A stretch of DNA of 64,000 nt. It comes from Callorhinchus milii (Eukaryota). Below the pieces are notes generated by a model. It was not told where the DNA came from. It worked only from the letters and a program-made list of their open reading frames with translations, and did no database searches. Numbering within the stretch: the first letter of the stretch is position 1; every line of letters starts with the position of its first letter. The DNA is taken from the NCBI RefSeq assembly GCF_018977255.1, contig NW_024704742.1:63490001-63554000 (forward strand), read 5' to 3'. Below are positions 22,128 to 64,000 of the stretch, piece by piece. Made by a program: the position numbers and the translations under genes.

Positions 22128-23126
<999 letters not shown>

Positions 23127-37088: not shown

Positions 37089-37620
37089 ATCGGGGTTTGG
37101 TGTATATACCCCCTCACCCCCTCTCCCCTCACCCCCCCTCACCCCCTCTCCCCTCACCCCCTCTCCCCTCACCCCCTCACCCCCTCTCCCCCCTCTCCCC
37201 CCTTACCCCCTCTCCCCCCTCTCCCCTCACCCCCTCTCCCCCTTCTACCACTCTCCCCCCTCTCCCCTCACCCCTCTCCCCTCACCCCCTCTCCCCTCAC
37301 CCTCTCCCCTCACCCCCTCTCCCCTCACCCCCTCTCCCCCTTCTACCACTCTCCCCCCCTCTCCCCTCACCCCTCTCCCCTCACCCCCTCTCCCCTCACC
37401 CTCACCCCCTCTACCCTCCCCCTCTCCCTTCACCCCCTCACCCCCCTCACCCCTCACCCCCTCTCCCCTCACCCCCTCTCCCCTCACCCCTCACCCCCTC
37501 TACCCTCACCCCCTCTACCCTCACCCCCTCTCCCCCCTCTACCCCCCTCCCCTCTCCCCTCCCCCCTCCCCTCTCCCCCTCGCGCCTCTCCTCTCACCCC
37601 TTACCCCTCTCCCCGCCCCT
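37089..37620. repeat. Polypyrimidine/polypurine low-complexity tract (CCCCTCT/CCCCTCA)n in probable MFAP3L intron 1
   Basis: Directly visible C-rich tract; G-rich on the MFAP3L sense strand. Confidence 0.95.
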
Positions 37621-37759
37621 CAGCCTTTGTTACTGCAGCCGATGGCAAGACAAGGCAGGGCAGGGGAAGGGAAGGCAGGGGCAGGGGAAGGCAGGGCAGG
37701 GGATGGAGATACCCAGGGCCCGGGGCGAGGTGCAGTGTGTCAGTGTGAGTGCCACTCAC

Positions 37760-37900
37760 CAGCTGATCCCCGGAGTCCCTTTGGAGCTGAGCCGCAGCAC
37801 TGTCTGTCTGTGTCTCTGTGTCTCTGTGGCTCTGCACAGGTCGCACTGTGCACCGCAACCACAGAGCAGCCGGAGATGCTTTCAACAGGAGCTCCCCCCC
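37760..37900 (-). other. MFAP3L: Probable non-coding 5' exon of MFAP3L
   Basis: Strong donor CTG|GTGAGT at 37759 on the minus strand; TATAAA at 37932-37927 lies just upstream. The 5' boundary is inferred. Confidence 0.5.
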
Positions 37901-37926
37901 CCCCCCCCCCCCCCCCCGCCTCCAGC

Positions 37927-38460
37927 TTTATATTAATATATGTATAAATATACAGCACAGTGTATATGTATTATATATCATATATATTTGTTAATCCAAT
38001 ATAATTGCTGCACTGTCCCTGTTGTTATTATTATTATTTGCTGTTGTTGGATTGCACTTCTTTTCTGTTTGCACTTGTTTCCCCCAACCCCAGACCCTGG
38101 GCTGGTGAGCTGTTAGCAGCCGGGCTCTGCCTGCCTTGCCCTGCCTGCCCTGCCCGCCTTGCCCTGCCCGCCCTGCCCGCACTGCCACACAAGGTGCTGA
38201 CGAGACTGGACTGACAGCCACAGGGTCACTCGCCCGGGACCCTGTGTAAAAGGTGGCACCGGCCCCCGCAGCCCGAGTGAGGCGCGCGCGGCGCAGCCCG
38301 AGCGGAGGAGGGAAGGCAGAGGCCGAGCCACGGAACCTGGATAACTCAATCACCTCTCACACGCTCGCCTCTCCCGCCCGGGAATGTGGATCAGGCAGAA
38401 CCATCCCGCCCCCGAACCTGAGTAAATGCATACCCGCCCTCCACCTCTGCTCGCCAAGGA
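37927..38460 (-). promoter_or_regulatory. MFAP3L candidate promoter: TATA-like box and small CpG-rich island
   Basis: Minus-strand TATAAA at 37932-37927; CpG/GC-rich segment ~38100-38460 (ggcgcgcgcggcgc, cccgccc motifs) in an otherwise CpG-poor window. Confidence 0.5.
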
Positions 38461-54502: not shown

Positions 54503-54693
54503 ACACCAGCTGAATTGCACACCACAAATTGGAATAAAACAAGTTCAGAACTGTTGTGATTCATCTGGTATGAGAGAAGGTTTTTTGTGTATTATTCCTC
54601 TATACTTTGTTCATTTAGGTAAAATATATCAGATTGGTAAGAGCCGTATAATTGTGTTTGGTCTCTATGGCAGAGCTGGTGTAAGAGCTCCAA

Positions 54694-55423
54694 TTGAGTG
54701 TCAACAAAACTGAGGCCCTCTTGCTTGACTCCCGTCATCACCTCCATACCTCAGGACCTGACAGGATCAGCCTTCATGGATGCACTCTACATCTCATGGA
54801 GCCAGTATGGAACCTCAGCATCTTGTTCGACCCTCAACTGTCCTTCATCCTCCACATCCGTGCCATGAACCCCTCCACCTTTCCTCCCTTCCCAAACATT
54901 GCCTAGCTCTGCAACTGTCTCTCACCACAGGCCGCTGAAACCCTCATCCACACATTCATTACAACCAGGCTCGACTACACACGCACTCTGCTTGTCGGCC
55001 TCCCCAACTCCTCCCTCCACAGGCTGCAGATCATCCAGAACTCGGCAGCCCATGTCCTCCACCCTATCAACCCCATCCTTGCCCAACTTCACTGGCTCCC
55101 TATCCCCCAGAGGATAGAGTTCAACATCCTCGTCCTCACCCTCATGGTCCCCCACAGCCTTGCCCCTCCCTATCTCTGTGACCTCCTAACCCCCTACGAA
55201 CCTGACCACTCCCTCCGCTCAGCAGGCTCCAACCTGCTTCATGTCACCCGCCTTGCCCGCCCCACCATTAGCAGGCGGGCCTTCAGCCAATCTGCTAACA
55301 CACTTTGGAACTCCATCTCACAGTCCCTCCACTTCAGCCCCTCCCTTGCCTCCTTCAAGACCCATCTCAAGACCCTCATCTTTGACGGTGCCTTCGATCA
55401 CCCTCCTACCCCTACCCCTATCT
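54694..55423 (+). mobile_element. Older L2 3' fragment; its tail resumes at 57451-57567 after the nested younger L2
   Basis: Degenerate ORF2 C-terminus (LHWLPIPQR, RAFS, LWNS, FKTHLKT); 57451-57567 continues the same 3' UTR seen in the copy at 307-870. Confidence 0.8.
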
Positions 55424-57450
55424 AGCCTAACGGTCCACCGACAAATCTGGCTGGACCTCCTCAAAATCTACCGCTCCACTCTAGCCTCGGCCAAGTCGTC
55501 CTTCTATTCCAGGATAATCCTGGAGGCGAAGAACAGCCCCAGGCTTCTGTTCTCCACCACACCCCGACTCCTCCGTCCCCCCCGCCACCCCGCGCAGGTC
55601 ATCTCCTCCAACCTTCACTGCGAGGAGATGCTGGATTTCCTTGAATCCAAAATCAAGGGAATCCGCTCCGTGGTCACTGCCTCTCCAACTTCCACCCACC
55701 CCCCAACCCCTTCATTCCCACACTCCGACTCCTACCCATCCTCCCCTACAGACCTTCGAACCCGTTCCCCACCCTCTGTCACCAACCTCATCCTGTCCCT
55801 GAAATCCACCACCTGCTCCCTTGACCCCATCCCCACTCCACTCCTTATCTCTCAGCTCCACCTCCTTGTCCCACTTCTCACAGACATCATCAACCTGTCC
55901 CTCTCCTCTGGCTCTGTTCCCATTCCCCTAAAAACTGCCACCATCACTCCCACTTTGAAAAATCCCTCCCTTGATGCATCGCAGCTATCAAGCTACCGGT
56001 CCATCTCCAACCTTCCCTTCCTGTCCAAGGTCCTTGAAAGAGTTGTCGCCTCCCAACTGCGCTCTTTCCTCTCCACCCATTCATTATTCGAACCCTTCCA
56101 GTCGGGTTTCCGTGCTGCCCATAGCACAGAAACTGCTCTGGTCAAGGTCACCAATGACATCTTGACCAACTGCGACCAGGGCTCCCTCTGCCTCTTCGTC
56201 CTATCGGCCGCATTCGATACGGTCGACCACACTATCCTCCTCCACCTCTTATCCTCCCACCTCAACCTTCAAGGCCCTGTCCTTGAGTGGTTTAGGTCGT
56301 ACATCTCCCACCGTCTTCATTTTGTTTCCACAAACGGCTTTTCCTCCACCCCCGCCCTGTCTTGTGCGGTGTCCCTCAGGGCTCTGTCCTCAGTCCCCTC
56401 CTCTTCACCCTCTATATGCTCCCCTTGGTGACATCATCCGCAGACATGGGGTTAACTTCCACATGTATGCGGATGACACCCAACTCTACCTTTCCTCCTC
56501 TACCCTCAACTCCACGACCACCGATGTCCTGACAGCTGCCTGTCCGACATCGAGTCCTGGACGAGAGACAACTTTCTTCAGCTCAACGTGCGCAAAACCG
56601 AGGCCCTCCTGATTGGCTCACGTCAGCGCCTCCGCACCTCAGGCGCTGACACCATCAGCATCCAAGGCTGCACTCTCCACCTCTCAAAGCCAGTCAGGAA
56701 CCTCGGGGTTCTGTTCGACCCTGAGCTGTCCTTTCTCCCTCATATCCGCGCCACAACTGGCACCGCCTTCCATCACCTCCGGAACATCGCCAGACTACGG
56801 CACTACCTCACCCCTCACGCTGCTGAAACTCTGGTCCACGCCTTTATCACCTCAAGGCTGGACTATGGGAACTCTCTCCTCGCCGGCCTTCCCGCACCTC
56901 CCTCCACACTGCAGGTCATTCAGAACTCTGCAGCTCGTGTACTGTCCCGCACCAGGCTCGCGACCACATCACTCCCACCCTCGCTCGCCTCCACTGGCTC
57001 CCCATCCCCCAGAGGATCGAATTCAAGATCCTCATCCTCACCTACAAGGCCATTCACGGCCTCGCTCCCTCCTACCTCTCCGACCTACTATCCCCTACTT
57101 ACCTGCCCGTACCCTCCGTTCCTCTGGCTCCGGTCTGCTCCACATCCCCCGCCCCAACCGCCCTACCATCGGTGGCCGGGCCTTCAGCCTCTCAGCCCCG
57201 AGGCTCTGGAACTCTATCCCCCAGTGCCTTCGCCGCCTCCTCCCTTTCCTCCTTCAAGGCCGGTCTCAAGACCTTTCTCTTTGACCGTGCCTTCAGCTCC
57301 CCTCTCGACTACCTCCTCGCTCCCTCCCTTCCCTCCCCTCACCCTGACCATTTCCCCCCCAATGCTCGGGCCCCGACCCAACTGTACAGCGCCTTGGGAC
57401 GTCTCCCGACGTGAAAGGCGCTCTATAAATGATATCTTGTTGTTGTTGTT
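55424..57450 (+). mobile_element. 5'-truncated L2-clade LINE with reverse transcriptase region (frameshifted) and intact 3' tail
   Basis: Motifs YRSISNLPFLSKVLERVV, QSGFRAAHSTETAL, SAAFDTVDH, HMYADDTQLY, HAFITSRLDYGN; 3' stem-loop followed by (TTG)n. Confidence 0.93.
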
Positions 57451-57566
57451 CCCCACCCTCCACCCATTCTGGTCACAACCACCAGCTTAACTGCGAATCC
57501 CTGACTGTCCAGGGTCTTGGAATGTCCTCCTGACATGAAAGGCACTATACAAATCTAATTTGTTGT

Positions 57567-58502
57567 TGATTGGTCCCTGTGGCGGAGCTGTGTGATTGGT
57601 CCCTGTGGCGGAGCCGGTCTGATTGGTCCCTGTGGCGGAGCCGGTCTGATTGGTCCCTGTGGCGGATCTGGTGTGATTGGTCCCTGTGGCGGAGCTGGTG
57701 TGATTGGTCCCTGTGGCGGAGCTGTGTGATTGGTCCCTGTGGCGGAGCTGGTGTGAACGGTCCCTATGGCGGAGCTATGAGAAAGGTCCCTGTGGCGGAG
57801 CTGTGTGAATGGTCCCTGTGGCGGAGCTGTGTGATTGGTCCCTGTGGCGGAGCTGTGTGATTGGTCCCTGTGGCGGAGCTGTGTGATTGGTCCCTTTGGC
57901 GGAGCTGGTGTGATTGGTCCCTGTGGCGGAGCTGTATGAATGGTCCCTGTGGCGGAGCTGTGTGATTGGTCCCTGTGGTGGAGCTGTGTGATTGGTCCCT
58001 GTGGCGGAGCTGTATGAATGGTCCCTGTGGCGGAGCTGTGTGATTGGTCCCTGTGGCGGAGCTGTGTGATTGGTCCCTGTGGCGGAGCTGTGTGATTGGT
58101 CCCTGTGGCGGAGCTGTGTGATGGTCCCTGTGGCGGAGCTGTTGATGGTCCCTGTGGCGGAGCTGTGTGATTGGTCCCTGTGGCGGAGCTGTGTGATTGG
58201 TCCCTGTGGCGGAGCTGTGTGATTGGTCCCTGTGGCGGAGCTGTGTGATTGGTCCCTGTGGCGGAGCTGTGTGATTGGTCCCTGTGGCGGAGCTGTGTGA
58301 TTGGTCCCTGTGGCGGAGCTGTGTGATTGGTCCCTGTGGCGGAGCTGTGTGATTGGTCCCTGTGGCGGAGCTGTGTGATTGGTCCCTGTGGCGGAGCTGT
58401 GTGATTGGTCCCTGTGGCGGAGCTGTGTGATTGGTCCCTGTGGCGGAGCTGTGTGATTGGTCCCTGTGGCGGAGCTGTGTGATTGGTCCCTGTGGCGGAG
58501 CT
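57567..58502 (+). repeat. 26-bp minisatellite (GATTGGTCCCTGTGGCGGAGCTGTGT)n, ~36 copies, at the HPF1 promoter position
   Basis: Directly visible tandem unit; ends ~46 bp before the HPF1 ATG. Confidence 0.97.
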
Positions 58503-58548
58503 GAGCTGTTGTGCTGAGTCGGGAGCTGCGGTTTGGGCCACTTTGTCA

Positions 58549-58593
58549 ATGGGGGGACGCGGGAAAAGGAAAGCGGCGTTTAAACGCGGAGAG
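58549..58593 (+). CDS. HPF1: Histone PARylation factor 1, coding exon 1 (MGGRGKRKAAFKRGE); absent from ORF track
   Basis: ATG at 58549; basic N-terminus resembles human MVGGGGKRR; donor GAG|GTAACT in phase 0 matches the phase-0 acceptor at 61051. Confidence 0.8.
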
Positions 58594-58625
58594 GTAACTC
58601 CATCAAAACAACACACAGACTGATT

Positions 58626-59493
58626 GCCTGGTTTCTGCTTTATTTGCTGGGTGTCTGGGTGCCTGGTTTGCTGGGTGCCTGGTTTGCTGGGTGTCTGGGT
58701 GTCTGGTTTGCTGGGTGTCTGGGTGTCTGGTTTGCTGGGTGTCTGGGTGCCTGGTTTGCTGGGTGTCTGGGTGCCTGGTTTGCTGGGTGTCTGGGTGCCT
58801 GGTTTGCTGGGTGTCTGGGTGTCTGGTTTGCTGGGTGTCTGGGTGCCTGGTTTGCTGGGTGTCTGGGTGCCTGGTTTGCTGGGTGTCTGGGTGGTGCCTG
58901 GTTTGCTGGGTGTCTGGGTGTCTGGTTTGCTGGGTGTCTGGGTGCCTGGTTTGCTGGGTGTCTGGGTGCCTGGTTTGCTGGGTGTCTGGGTGCCTGGTTT
59001 GCTGGGTGCCTGGTTTGCTGGGTGTCTGGGTGCCTGGTTTGCTGGGTGTCTGGGTGCCTGGTTTGCTGGGTGTCTGGGTGCCTGGTTTGCTGGGTGTCTG
59101 GGTGCCTGGTTTGCTGGGTGTCTGGGTGCCTGGTTTGCTGGGTGTCTGGGTGCCTGGTTTGCTGGGTGTCTGGTTTGCTGGGTGTCTGGGTGCCTGGTTT
59201 GCTGGGTGTCTGGGTGCCTGGTTTGCTGGGTGTCTGGGTGCCTGGTTTGCTGGGTGTCTGGGTGCCTGGGTGCCTGGTTTGCTGGGTGTCTGGGTGCCTG
59301 GTTTGCTGGGTGCCTGGTTTGCTGGGTGTCTGGGTGCCTGGTTTGCTGGGTGTCTGGGTGCCTGGTTTGCTGGGTGTCTGGTTTGCTGGGTGTCTGGGTG
59401 CCTGGTTTGCTGGGTGTCTGGGTGCCTGGTTTGCTGGGTGTCTGGTTTGCTGGGTGTCTGGGTGCCTGGTTTGCTGGGTGTCTGGGTGTCTGG
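58626..59493 (+). repeat. 24-bp minisatellite (CTGGTTTG CTGGGTGT CTGGGTGC)n built from 8-bp subunits, HPF1 intron 1
   Basis: Directly visible; 16- and 24-bp unit variants occur. Confidence 0.97.
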
Positions 59494-61050
59494 TCACTCT
59501 CTCGCTGCTGTGTCTCTGGTGCAGTGATCAGGCGGTGTCGGTGTCGCTGCTGTTGGTGTAGCGGCTGCGGTTGGATTCCCTTGTGATACACTGTGTTCCT
59601 GGTGAATCCGCTGCTGATCATTGTCTGTGCAGAGAAACTCCAGTGTTTGAGGCTAAAAGCTGCGAAACCAGAGGGTTTTTGCAATAACAAAAACCATTGC
59701 CGCCGAGAGAGATGCTGTTTGACAAGGCCTCGCCTGATTTTGCTGAGCTCCTCTGTGTGTGTGTGTATATGTGTGTGTTTTGAGGCCTTTCCTTCTCTCT
59801 TCTCTCAAGTGGAGCAAAATATGATAATAATGATAATAATCCTTGAGCTCCTCTGTGTGTGTGTGTGTGTGTGTGTAATTTTTGGCCCTGCCTTTGGTTT
59901 GCTGTTCTCTCAAATCGTGCAAAATATGATGTTACTAATCCTTCCAATTGATGATAATAATAATAATAATAATCCTTGGATTTGATATAACACCTGATCA
60001 CATCGTCGAGACGTCTCAAAGCACTTCACGGGATATACTGTAAAATGGATCAACTGTATTCTGTGGGTGAAAAATGCACGACCCTCCCCCTCCCACACCG
60101 CTCAACACTTCGCTGCCTGTGGGGTTCTTGCAGCATTTATCTAACAAGACTGCTAAAAACAAACAATTCATATCTTAGGCTTCAGCACTGGTTTCACCGT
60201 GGCCACGAGTTTTGCATTTCAAATGCTAAAAACTCTGTTACACACAGTCACAGGCGGTGCGTAATGCAGTGACTGTATCTTTACTACTATTTTTGGAAGA
60301 ATTGATCCGTGTTGACATTGTGGATCGGAACACAATAGAGGCTTCTGTTTATTATAATAATAATAATAAACCTTGCATTTGATATAATGCCTTATCATGC
60401 CGTTGAGCCGTCTCAAAGTGCTTTGCAGGACATACTGTAAAGTGAATTGACTGTATTTTATGGGGGAACTCAGTTGCCGGAGGTGCCATCCTTTGGATGG
60501 AATATTTAAGCCGAGATATGATCTGCCTGTTCAGTTGAAAGTTAAAGACCTGTGAAACTAAAATAGAAGGGAGATCCTGCATTTGTCCCAGCCAATAATC
60601 CTTCAGATTGTTGTTTTTATGTTATAGATGCATTTGCACGTTATAGAACATAAGAAATAATAATAATAATCCTTGCATTTGATATAGCGCTTTTTACATC
60701 TTCTCGACGTCTCAAAGCGCTTCACAGAATATACTGTAAAGTGAATTGACCGTATATTTGTGGGCGAAACGCGGCAGCCAATTGCGCACAGTAGTGTCCC
60801 ACAAACAGTCGTGGATTAAAAATGATCAATTTATTATTGTTTTTGTTTTGATCTAGCCCCTTATTATGTTAAATGATAGATGAAAGAAGACCAAGCTCCA
60901 TCCAGTTCACCTTCCACCATCCTGGCAGTCACTTGCACGTCATGTCATGTACCAAACTATATACTGTATCCCACAATGTTATTCTAGATGCTTTATCAAA
61001 TGCAGTTTATTATTATTATTAATAATGTTTGCATTCCTCTTTGTCCTCAG

Positions 61051-61213
61051 TCTGTGAAGCCAGGCGATGATGCTAAGAAAAAGCGACCAGAGAAGGCTAC
61101 CTTCCCTGAGGAAATAAGAAAAGAGATTCACAGTCTCTACAAGCTCCCGATGCCTGAAGATTTTTATCACTTCTGGAAATTCTGTGAGGACTTGAATCCT
61201 GAGGATCCTTGTG
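61051..61213 (+). CDS. HPF1: HPF1 exon 2
   Basis: tcctcag|SVKPGDDAKKKRPEKATFPEEIRKEIHSLYKLPMPEDFYHFWKFCEDLNPEDPC; PEDFYHFWKFCE is an HPF1 signature; donor G|GTGTGT in phase 1. Confidence 0.92.
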
Positions 61214-62963: not shown

Positions 62964-63150
62964 AGGCTTTGAAGTCGAGCCTTGGGCTGCAGCTCGTTGG
63001 GCCTTATGATATCTTGGCAGGAAAACATAAAAGGACAAAAAACTCCGACCTAAACTATCATCTTCATTGGAGACACTTCTACGATCCACCAGAATTCCAG
63101 ACCGTCCTCATTGGTGATTCTGTCACGCAATTTCACCTCGGCTACTTCAG
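62964..63150 (+). CDS. HPF1: HPF1 exon 3
   Basis: aaatag|(E)[22 protein letters not shown]...[28 protein letters not shown]; donor AG|GTAATT in phase 2. Confidence 0.95.
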
Positions 63151-63264: not shown

Positions 63265-63363
63265 GGATGTTCCAGATGAATTGCCAGTGTTCATAGGTGC
63301 CAATGAGGCAAAGAAGGGCTGCTCAGTTGTTCAGCTGGGAGACAATTTGTTTAGTGCAGTGAA
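63265..63363 (+). CDS. HPF1: HPF1 exon 4
   Basis: ttgcag|(R)[32 protein letters not shown]; donor AA|GTAAGT; 99 nt, phase 2-2. Confidence 0.93.
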
Positions 63364-63867: not shown

Positions 63868-64000
63868 ACTCTTGTTGTCTAAGAGACTAAAGGAGATGAG
63901 CAATAAAAAAGAGATCCGTGTTTTGAAAGACCTTGATGCCCAGTTGATCGCATTAGCGGCAAAATTAGATTATTCTCTGGACCAAAGAACTAAAGAGATG
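63868..64000 (+). CDS. HPF1: HPF1 exon 5 (truncated by window end)
   Basis: ttctcag|(K)LLLSKRLKEMSNKKEIRVLKDLDAQLIALAAKLDYSLDQRTKEM; aligns by eye with human KLFLTKKLRE...LGYSLEQRTVKM. Confidence 0.9.

Follow-up and report, generated by a model that had tools for sequence, protein, structure and literature searches.

In Callorhinchus milii, the coding start of HPF1 is preceded by a minisatellite of 26-bp units that pair an inverted CCAAT box with a GC-box-like word, and this array is one member of a genome-wide class of CCAAT arrays. On balance we favour the reading that it is the HPF1 proximal promoter, grown from an ordinary NF-Y/Sp module, in which the last few units would work and the distal ones would saturate. 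Taken singly, the HPF1 locus is a further case of the known promoter minisatellites, and what is new is the repeated independent amplification. Positions are those of the window, the whole stretch of 64,000 nucleotides that was analysed (contig NW_024704742.1, positions 63,490,001 to 63,554,000).

Anatomy of the HPF1 array

Tandem Repeats Finder places the minisatellite at 57567-58503, with a period of 26, 35.9 copies, 95% matches and a score of 1666. Its head-to-tail units lie within the range of about 10-60 bp expected of a minisatellite. After division into 36 units by a hand-set anchor, the CCAAT box TGATTGGTC, whose minus-strand reading is GACCAATCA, is kept in 29 units, and GACCAATCAC is the reading in 26. 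The GC-box-like GGCGGAG is kept in 34 of the 36 and TGTGGCGGAGC in 32, in line with the array of about 36 CCAAT and GC-like units described before HPF1 by the initial annotation. The CCAAT box is damaged in 7 units versus 2 for the GC box. The sense strand is G/T-rich (A 0.09).

The NF-Y consensus is CCAAT with purines before it and CA(G/C) after it, and 29 of the 36 units conform to it. As for the double-CCAAT/Sp module, defined by a box-to-box distance of 24-28 or 35-37 bp and a GC-rich site in the interval, the array has this arrangement at 26 bp. When the letters of the unit were shuffled 200,000 times, in a chance test picked after the fact, the 9-base CCAAT motif arose in 0.13% of shuffles and both motifs together in 0.

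Unit comparison divides the array in two. The part from 57567 to 58146 is older and heterogeneous, with variants of 24-27 bp, and every damaged box of the array (7 CCAAT, 2 GC) falls within it, as does each of the 9 ATG triplets. The promoter-proximal block, from 58147 to 58503, is homogeneous: 13 identical units (23-35) and 19 further bases, without any ATG triplet. The last CCAAT box, GACCAATCA on the minus strand (58480-58488), has its ATTGG 67 bases 5' of the HPF1 ATG. The last GC-box-like word, GTGGCGGAGC on the plus strand (58492-58501), agrees at 9 of 10 positions with the Sp1 decamer and is a candidate site.

From the array end to the ATG there are 45 unique bases (58504-58548, plus strand), a transcribed leader or core promoter, in which we found no CCAAT word and no TATA word among those searched. 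The CpG observed/expected ratio is 1.26 for 58504-58593. Within the array, the CpG is kept in 35 of the 36 units, so the near-complete retention noted earlier is real. Retention was rejected as proof of non-methylation: it is weak evidence because the copies are young, with 13 units identical, and because the CpG ratio of the neighbouring L2 (56001-57000) is higher, 0.71 versus 0.49 in the array.

GGCGGAG had also been likened to a CDE site. A CHR word stands four bases after the CDE in cell-cycle promoters, and no such word follows the boxes here. A CDE/CHR promoter was rejected after six CHR-type words were sought in 57451-58650, with only TTTAAA at 58579 found, inside coding sequence.

An assembly artefact, for which the initial annotation had proposed a check, is unlikely, since a 56-nt contig of run X4, at a depth of 184, is a closed 26-bp cycle, that is, the array collapsed in contigs, and run X13 joins two array units to exon 1. 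The 36 copies are the figure of the assembly, where the locus is present in one copy. No LTR features were found around the array. A scan for bacterial promoters, irrelevant here, found nothing.

The HPF1 gene and its transcript

The gene had been named as HPF1, and two matches bear this out: Pfam PF10228 on exon 3 (62964-63150, E 4e-23) and the solved HPF1 protein on exon 2 (61051-61213, E 7.5e-14). Residue 8 of exon 2 falls on residue 23 of the solved protein. This register and an exon 1 of 15 codons (58549-58593, ending at a GT donor) make the ATG at 58549 residue 1, the orthologous start. Exon 4 (63265-63363) was assigned from the reading frame and splice sites, and exon 5 (63868-64000), which is cut by the window end, from the reading frame and one splice site. 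All exons are on the plus strand, and exons 1 and 2 are also supported by a contig of run X13.

This 493-nt contig, from a run guessed to be RNA, consists of 58477-58593 and 26 extra letters, followed by exon 2. It carries about 53 nt of array, which places its end inside the last two units, covers the 45 unique bases and leaves exon 1 at 58593. Exon 1 is real, and some RNA, if X13 is RNA as guessed, includes the last two array units. With its path from the last two units through exon 1 to exon 2, the contig upholds the earlier view that a promoter-type module was amplified at the HPF1 start. It comes from one of two RNA-type runs; the other, X10, has no contig on the stretch, and contigs of X20 and X4 cover parts of the stretch only.

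Contigs cannot show a start, and if transcripts began where this one does, about 53 nt inside the array, the boxes at 58352-58482 would stand approximately 40-120 bp upstream. A closed 26-bp cycle with 31-letter words requires 56 nt; the X13 contig has 3 fewer, which faintly suggests that few molecules extend any farther upstream.

Organism B matches 58547-58597 with 4 differences. A single-unit ancestor, which the initial annotation had proposed to look for in orthologous promoters, was not seen in the 30 bases upstream of exon 1 in this organism, which are unrelated. At position 61060, in exon 2, one X13 contig has T versus C in the window, by which the codon would differ.

DNA flanking the array

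The initial annotation had described an L2 tail, the array, about 46 bp of unique sequence and the ATG in direct succession. The array followed by 45 unique bases is as described, but the tail that touches it belongs to a second, short L2-type 3' end (57451-57568, plus strand), 77% alike over 66 bases to the first tail, and its TTG run enters the first CCAAT box. The longer element is a 5'-truncated L2-type LINE (55430-57450, plus strand, start approximate) with a frameshifted reverse-transcriptase frame (RVT_1 match, E 6e-11, frame 55190-56428) and a (TTG)n tail of its own that ends around 57450. We take it to be an L2, as did the initial annotation. An older, decayed L2-type 3' fragment precedes it (54680-55430, plus strand, approximate limits), with an ORF at 54907-55425 that resembles the C-terminus of L2 ORF2. 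Given these three pieces, about 2.9 kb upstream of the array is LINE-derived.

On the other side of exon 1, repeat finding shows an unrelated minisatellite of 24 bp x 37 (58643-59494), which starts 50 bases into HPF1 intron 1, has no A or CpG on the sense strand and is motif-free. HPF1 exon 1 lies between two arrays (57567-58503 and 58643-59494).

CCAAT arrays in the genome

A DNA search with the array end returned only the HPF1 locus and three weakly similar arrays (71-77%, other flanks), which is a lower bound. A similarity search led to a CCAAT array of 32 bp x 34.6 before a Caprin-2 exon. Searches by pattern gave a much larger set, with 729 matches for three boxes versus 186 for the reversed pattern. 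Sub-searches gave 268 versus 78 and, with a small excess at periods 20-25, 131 versus 79, while TGATTGGCY triplets at periods 25-28 had 215 matches versus 1. For loose GATTGG triplets the reversed control was far larger (36,953 versus 4,213), probably because the reversed word lies within telomere-type repeats; the test was therefore made with the 9-base pattern in place of the loose search.

Arrays were listed from 100 matches each of the 729, 268, 131, 215 and 186. TGATTGGTY arrays of period 26-27 were covered to C3:27 Mb and the other listings to C11-C15. Left out of the counts are L026 (a duplicate of L015), L011, L012 and L013 (reached via similarity), L043, L045 and L046 (looser pattern), and L040-L042. 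A hand count of the matches listed, from C1 to C9:22.97 Mb, gives at least 45 distinct CCAAT arrays versus 14 reversed-motif arrays. Spacers are mostly unrelated within the class, unit lengths range from 22 to 44 bp, and arrays have 3 to 72 boxes among the matches listed.

We scored proximity to promoters by a CpG rule (8 or more non-repeat CpG no farther than 150 bp from an array end), which 5% of single 150-bp windows of the window satisfy as background. Among the matches listed, 31 of 53 CCAAT arrays satisfy it (27/45 scored and 4/8 held out). The label "promoter-like", partly judged by eye and not blind, applies to 26 of 45 and to 5 of 8 held-out arrays among the same matches.

CCAAT arrays were found at the gene starts of TOMM5, MMUT, UPB1 and POGLUT2. 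The gene parts identified beside arrays are Tom5, Mab-21, methylmalonyl-CoA mutase, beta-ureidopropionase, POGLUT2 and an internal SCP2-thiolase exon. The distance from the last box to the ATG is 46-203 bases in five cases and 531 bases at Mab-21. Pfam had no match for 8 first-exon translations of array-adjacent genes, and the PDB had none for L058 and only one at E 0.23 for L067. We assume WDR35, SPAST, SELENOO, SRRM1, RAX, MED21, PI4KA and SNAP29 to be further array-adjacent genes.

Several loci deserve individual mention. L064 (C5:2733340-2734440) is a CCAAT array of 32 bp x 35. It stands directly 5' of the internal SCP2-thiolase exon (residues 380-411), and the short SCP2 transcript presumably starts there. 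The largest array (L100, L084 and L101, C11:2282600-2284650) spans about 2 kb, with a 26-bp unit, 72 CCAAT boxes and a canonical GC box; after it comes a short CpG-rich segment that has a GT donor. The TOMM5 start occurs twice with its array of 27 bp x 18.9 (L015 at C1:4004341 and L026 at C1:4019840), 15.5 kb apart and 96.8% alike over 3 kb, as a tandem duplicate or an assembly duplicate. L012 (C12, 4795-5199) is an array of 30 bp x 13.5 with CCAGT in place of CCAAT, running opposite to a neighbouring CpG-rich stretch with a GT donor. L059 and L110 are CCAAT arrays followed by CDE/CHR- or E2F-like words, as judged by eye.

NF-Y-like features and controls

The boxes of the class look like real NF-Y sites, measured against the consensus. 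C or G follows CCAATCA, at a base that was not part of the search pattern, in 25 of 26 promoter-like arrays versus 9 of 14 controls among the matches listed (p=0.014). Two places further, at another unimposed base, G is found in 17/26 versus 1/14 of the arrays listed (p=0.0004). GC-box-like cores are present in 11 of 26 promoter-like units and in 3 of 33 others among those listed (p=0.004). The 22 of 53 CCAAT arrays that are not promoter-like still show the extended flank in 12 of 19 cases among the matches listed.

Reversed-motif controls also adjoin promoters. By the CpG rule, 5 of 14 do so versus 31 of 53 CCAAT arrays among the matches listed (p=0.11); by eye, the figures among the same matches are 4 of 14 versus 31 of 53 (p=0.045). 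One promoter-adjacent control array contains ATTGG, and for four controls a flank was not reached.

The arrays have a polarity. In 20 of 25 decided cases among the matches listed, the side richer in CpG is the one downstream on the TGATTGG strand (p=0.004). Promoter-adjacent controls and the HPF1 intron array are likewise G/T-rich on the sense strand, and the polarity therefore points to mutational bias rather than to NF-Y.

The period of 26 bp, about 2.5 helical turns, had been read as placing neighbouring sites on opposite faces of the helix. In the available part of a human NF-Y ChIP study, double CCAAT boxes stand mainly 19, 26, 36 or 43 bp apart, with peaks at 24-27 and 36, and the 26 and 36 bp classes form a module of Sp1, Sp2, FOS, IRF3, RFX5 and PBX3 with E-box or GC-rich sites (PMC4889920). 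The HPF1 spacing fits this preference, and since 26 bp with a GC-rich site is preferred in the human data, it is not an oddity. Nor is the match specific: among the matches listed, 10 of 24 promoter-like arrays have a period of 24-28, and so do 5 of 12 controls. Period clustering at 24-28 as a signature of the class was ruled out, being no commoner than in controls.

Origin and possible function

The HPF1 array can be accounted for by the following course of events. An ancestral promoter may have had two CCAAT boxes about 26 bp apart. These boxes, as direct repeats of some 10 bases, would have given rise to slippage or unequal exchange in which precisely one interval from box to box was copied, and later turnover would have homogenised the gene-proximal array end. 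Diverged extra CCAAT boxes with different spacers, seen beside several arrays (L045, L059, L071, L079), are expected under such seeding. Growth itself would be due to the mutational process that appears to place G/T-rich minisatellites beside many promoters in this genome, with HPF1 having its second array in intron 1. We count for neutral growth both the 4 of 14 controls at promoters (by eye) and the CCAAT box being mutated more than the GC box.

In the present promoter, NF-Y and an Sp/KLF factor would occupy the three to five units nearest the gene and direct initiation to the array end. In mouse ESCs, NF-Y sits at a median of 94 bp upstream of the TSS (PMC6624317), and it activates from upstream of the TSS, while sites downstream can repress or block (PMC11269187); going by the accessible text of these two reports, distal units should therefore saturate. 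The distal units would be redundant and at most keep the region open beside the L2 copies, and copy number would be tolerated and would not act as a dial.

A dial is what the initial annotation had in mind, and we regard it as rather improbable. In this alternative, most units would bind NF-Y and Sp factors, animals would differ in array length, and HPF1 output or the extent of the open region would depend on that length, here or throughout the class. The 29 intact boxes speak for it, spaced above the minimum of 19 bp that the part of the human study available gives for two NF-Y (PMC4889920). So do the periods: among the matches listed, promoter-like arrays (period 20-45) lie under 22 in 0 of 24 cases versus 4 of 12 controls (p=0.008). 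Arrays also reach 35 boxes (L064) and 72 boxes (L084), and human promoter VNTRs are enriched near TSSs, some being eQTLs, according to the text at hand of one survey (PMC8096271). On the contrary, the position dependence and downstream repression of NF-Y (PMC11269187, in part) do not suit a dial of this length, damaged boxes concentrate in the distal array part, and the duplicated TOMM5 locus has 18.9 copies at both places. At ABO, transcript levels were normal from an allele that lacks three units, and the accessible portion of that report calls the effect controversial (PMC7187371).

A broader form of this thought would take in the whole class, and we would give it little credence. About 50 promoters, a rough extrapolation (729 matches at 7.7 per array give about 95 arrays, of which about 58% would be promoter-like), would independently have become runs of NF-Y or NF-Y and Sp sites with up to about 70 boxes, via a strand-biased process seeded by double CCAAT boxes. 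Such arrays would be polymorphic and occupied over their full length, and they would tune expression or restrain silencing from the neighbouring L2 copies, so that a slow-evolving genome would have fast-evolving housekeeping promoters.

It is quite unlikely that the motifs are incidental, with HPF1 driven by the 45 unique bases and exon 1, and the array a neutral G/T-rich minisatellite, methylated or nucleosomal and free of NF-Y. Control minisatellites that likewise adjoin promoters and the motif-free array on the other side of exon 1 agree with this reading, as do the array CpG ratio of just 0.49 and an HPF1 box that differs from the class consensus at two outer flank positions. It is opposed by the numbers, with CCAAT arrays at least three times as frequent as reversed-motif arrays among the matches listed, and by the unimposed NF-Y flanks across the class. 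At the locus, the 45 bases lack a CCAAT or TATA word, and the X13 contig, guessed to be RNA, covers the last two units.

Slightly less probable still is an origin in promoter-directed meiotic recombination after loss of PRDM9 function, where breaks default to promoters and breed minisatellites there. The polar homogenisation at the gene-proximal end of the HPF1 array would fit. In the available text of Baker et al., C. milii is listed with a KRAB-SET PRDM9 without SSXRD and without testis expression (PMC5519329), whereas Cavassim et al., equally as far as their accessible text goes, count it as complete (PMC8892340). SSXRD-like matches (21.8-23.8 bits, cut-off 23) were found on 7 small contigs, each followed on its own strand, 1-4 kb downstream, by PR/SET exon matches, and they disagree with the listing without SSXRD in the available part of PMC5519329. 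Double-strand breaks alone do not explain the strand bias either. The contigs with both matches are C969, C1143, C737, C1226, C668, C936 and C1362, with PR/SET only on C1096 and C1419; judged from sequence, those with SSXRD-like matches may represent a multi-copy PRDM9-like gene or redundant haplotigs.

Arrival of the unit in an LTR, a MITE or a LINE end with later exaptation is very improbable, even though the HPF1 array and likewise L057, L071 and L106 begin at an L2-type tail, L046 and L048 have common sequence and look MITE-borne by eye, and L012 and L011 have 13 and 15 bases in common with the HPF1 unit, for the array-end search reached nothing beyond the HPF1 locus and the three 71-77% arrays (a lower bound), class spacers are mostly unrelated, and the L2-type tail of 57451-57568 has 20 other matches within the window, at which no other CCAAT array was found. 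A transposon- or LTR-borne array, with unit and flanks as a dispersed element, was accordingly rejected within the limits of that search. L046 and L048 (C1:27770438 and 77538344) are short CCAAT arrays, and L046 lies between apparent transposon ends.

Relation to known systems

A close relative is the NF-Y minisatellite of human ABO, with 43-bp units, where tandem CCAAT units likewise lie upstream of a gene and action by copy number was proposed. Located about 3.7-3.9 kb upstream, it consists of 1 or 4 units, and both binding and polymorphism were shown, in the portion of the report available (PMC7187371). The HPF1 array differs in having 36 units of 26 bp as a candidate proximal promoter, with a GC-like box and within a class of dozens, and it is known from sequence.

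The human double-CCAAT module resembles the HPF1 array in its boxes 26 bp apart, the GC-rich site between them and the location at promoters; that module consists of box pairs with NF-Y bound, whereas the array is a long, near-identical run of predicted sites (PMC4889920, accessible part). NF-Y-bound LTR repeats (ERV1 with 19-bp double boxes; LTR12/ERV9) also bring multiple CCAAT boxes on a repeat, but they are dispersed copies of one element, while CCAAT arrays are locus-specific with mostly unrelated spacers (same part of PMC4889920).

Human promoter VNTRs with factor sites include the XRCC5 Sp1 repeats and TPMT (cited in PMC8096271). Human minisatellites are concentrated in CpG islands and less than 1 kb from genes, a setting comparable to that of the HPF1 array, and some affect expression; length variation was shown for them, and a CCAAT-specific class is not described in the available text of that survey (PMC8096271).

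Our literature search on species, gene and repeat type, with most subscription papers and supplements outside its reach, found no description of the HPF1 array or of the class; it turned up ABO and BORIS and nothing on fish. Promoter minisatellites that carry factor sites are known as isolated cases (ABO, XRCC5). The new element is that the same factor site was amplified independently at no fewer than 30 gene-start-like loci of one vertebrate genome. Such a series suits two questions. One is whether further NF-Y sites add to the effect of the few closest to the TSS; the other is whether minisatellites are born from paired factor sites. For the HPF1 locus by itself, little follows unless expression depends on array length.

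Other observations in the window

A CpG-rich patch at 38.0-38.4 kb lies beside C-rich tandem arrays (37108-38356) and may be where MFAP3L starts, on the minus strand. The MFAP3L exon within the window agrees at 100% with a Callorhinchus milii protein. The last MFAP3L exon contains a coding repeat of 21 bp x 5.1 (22225-22331), and the nearest relative, P0003, has 407 aa versus 420.
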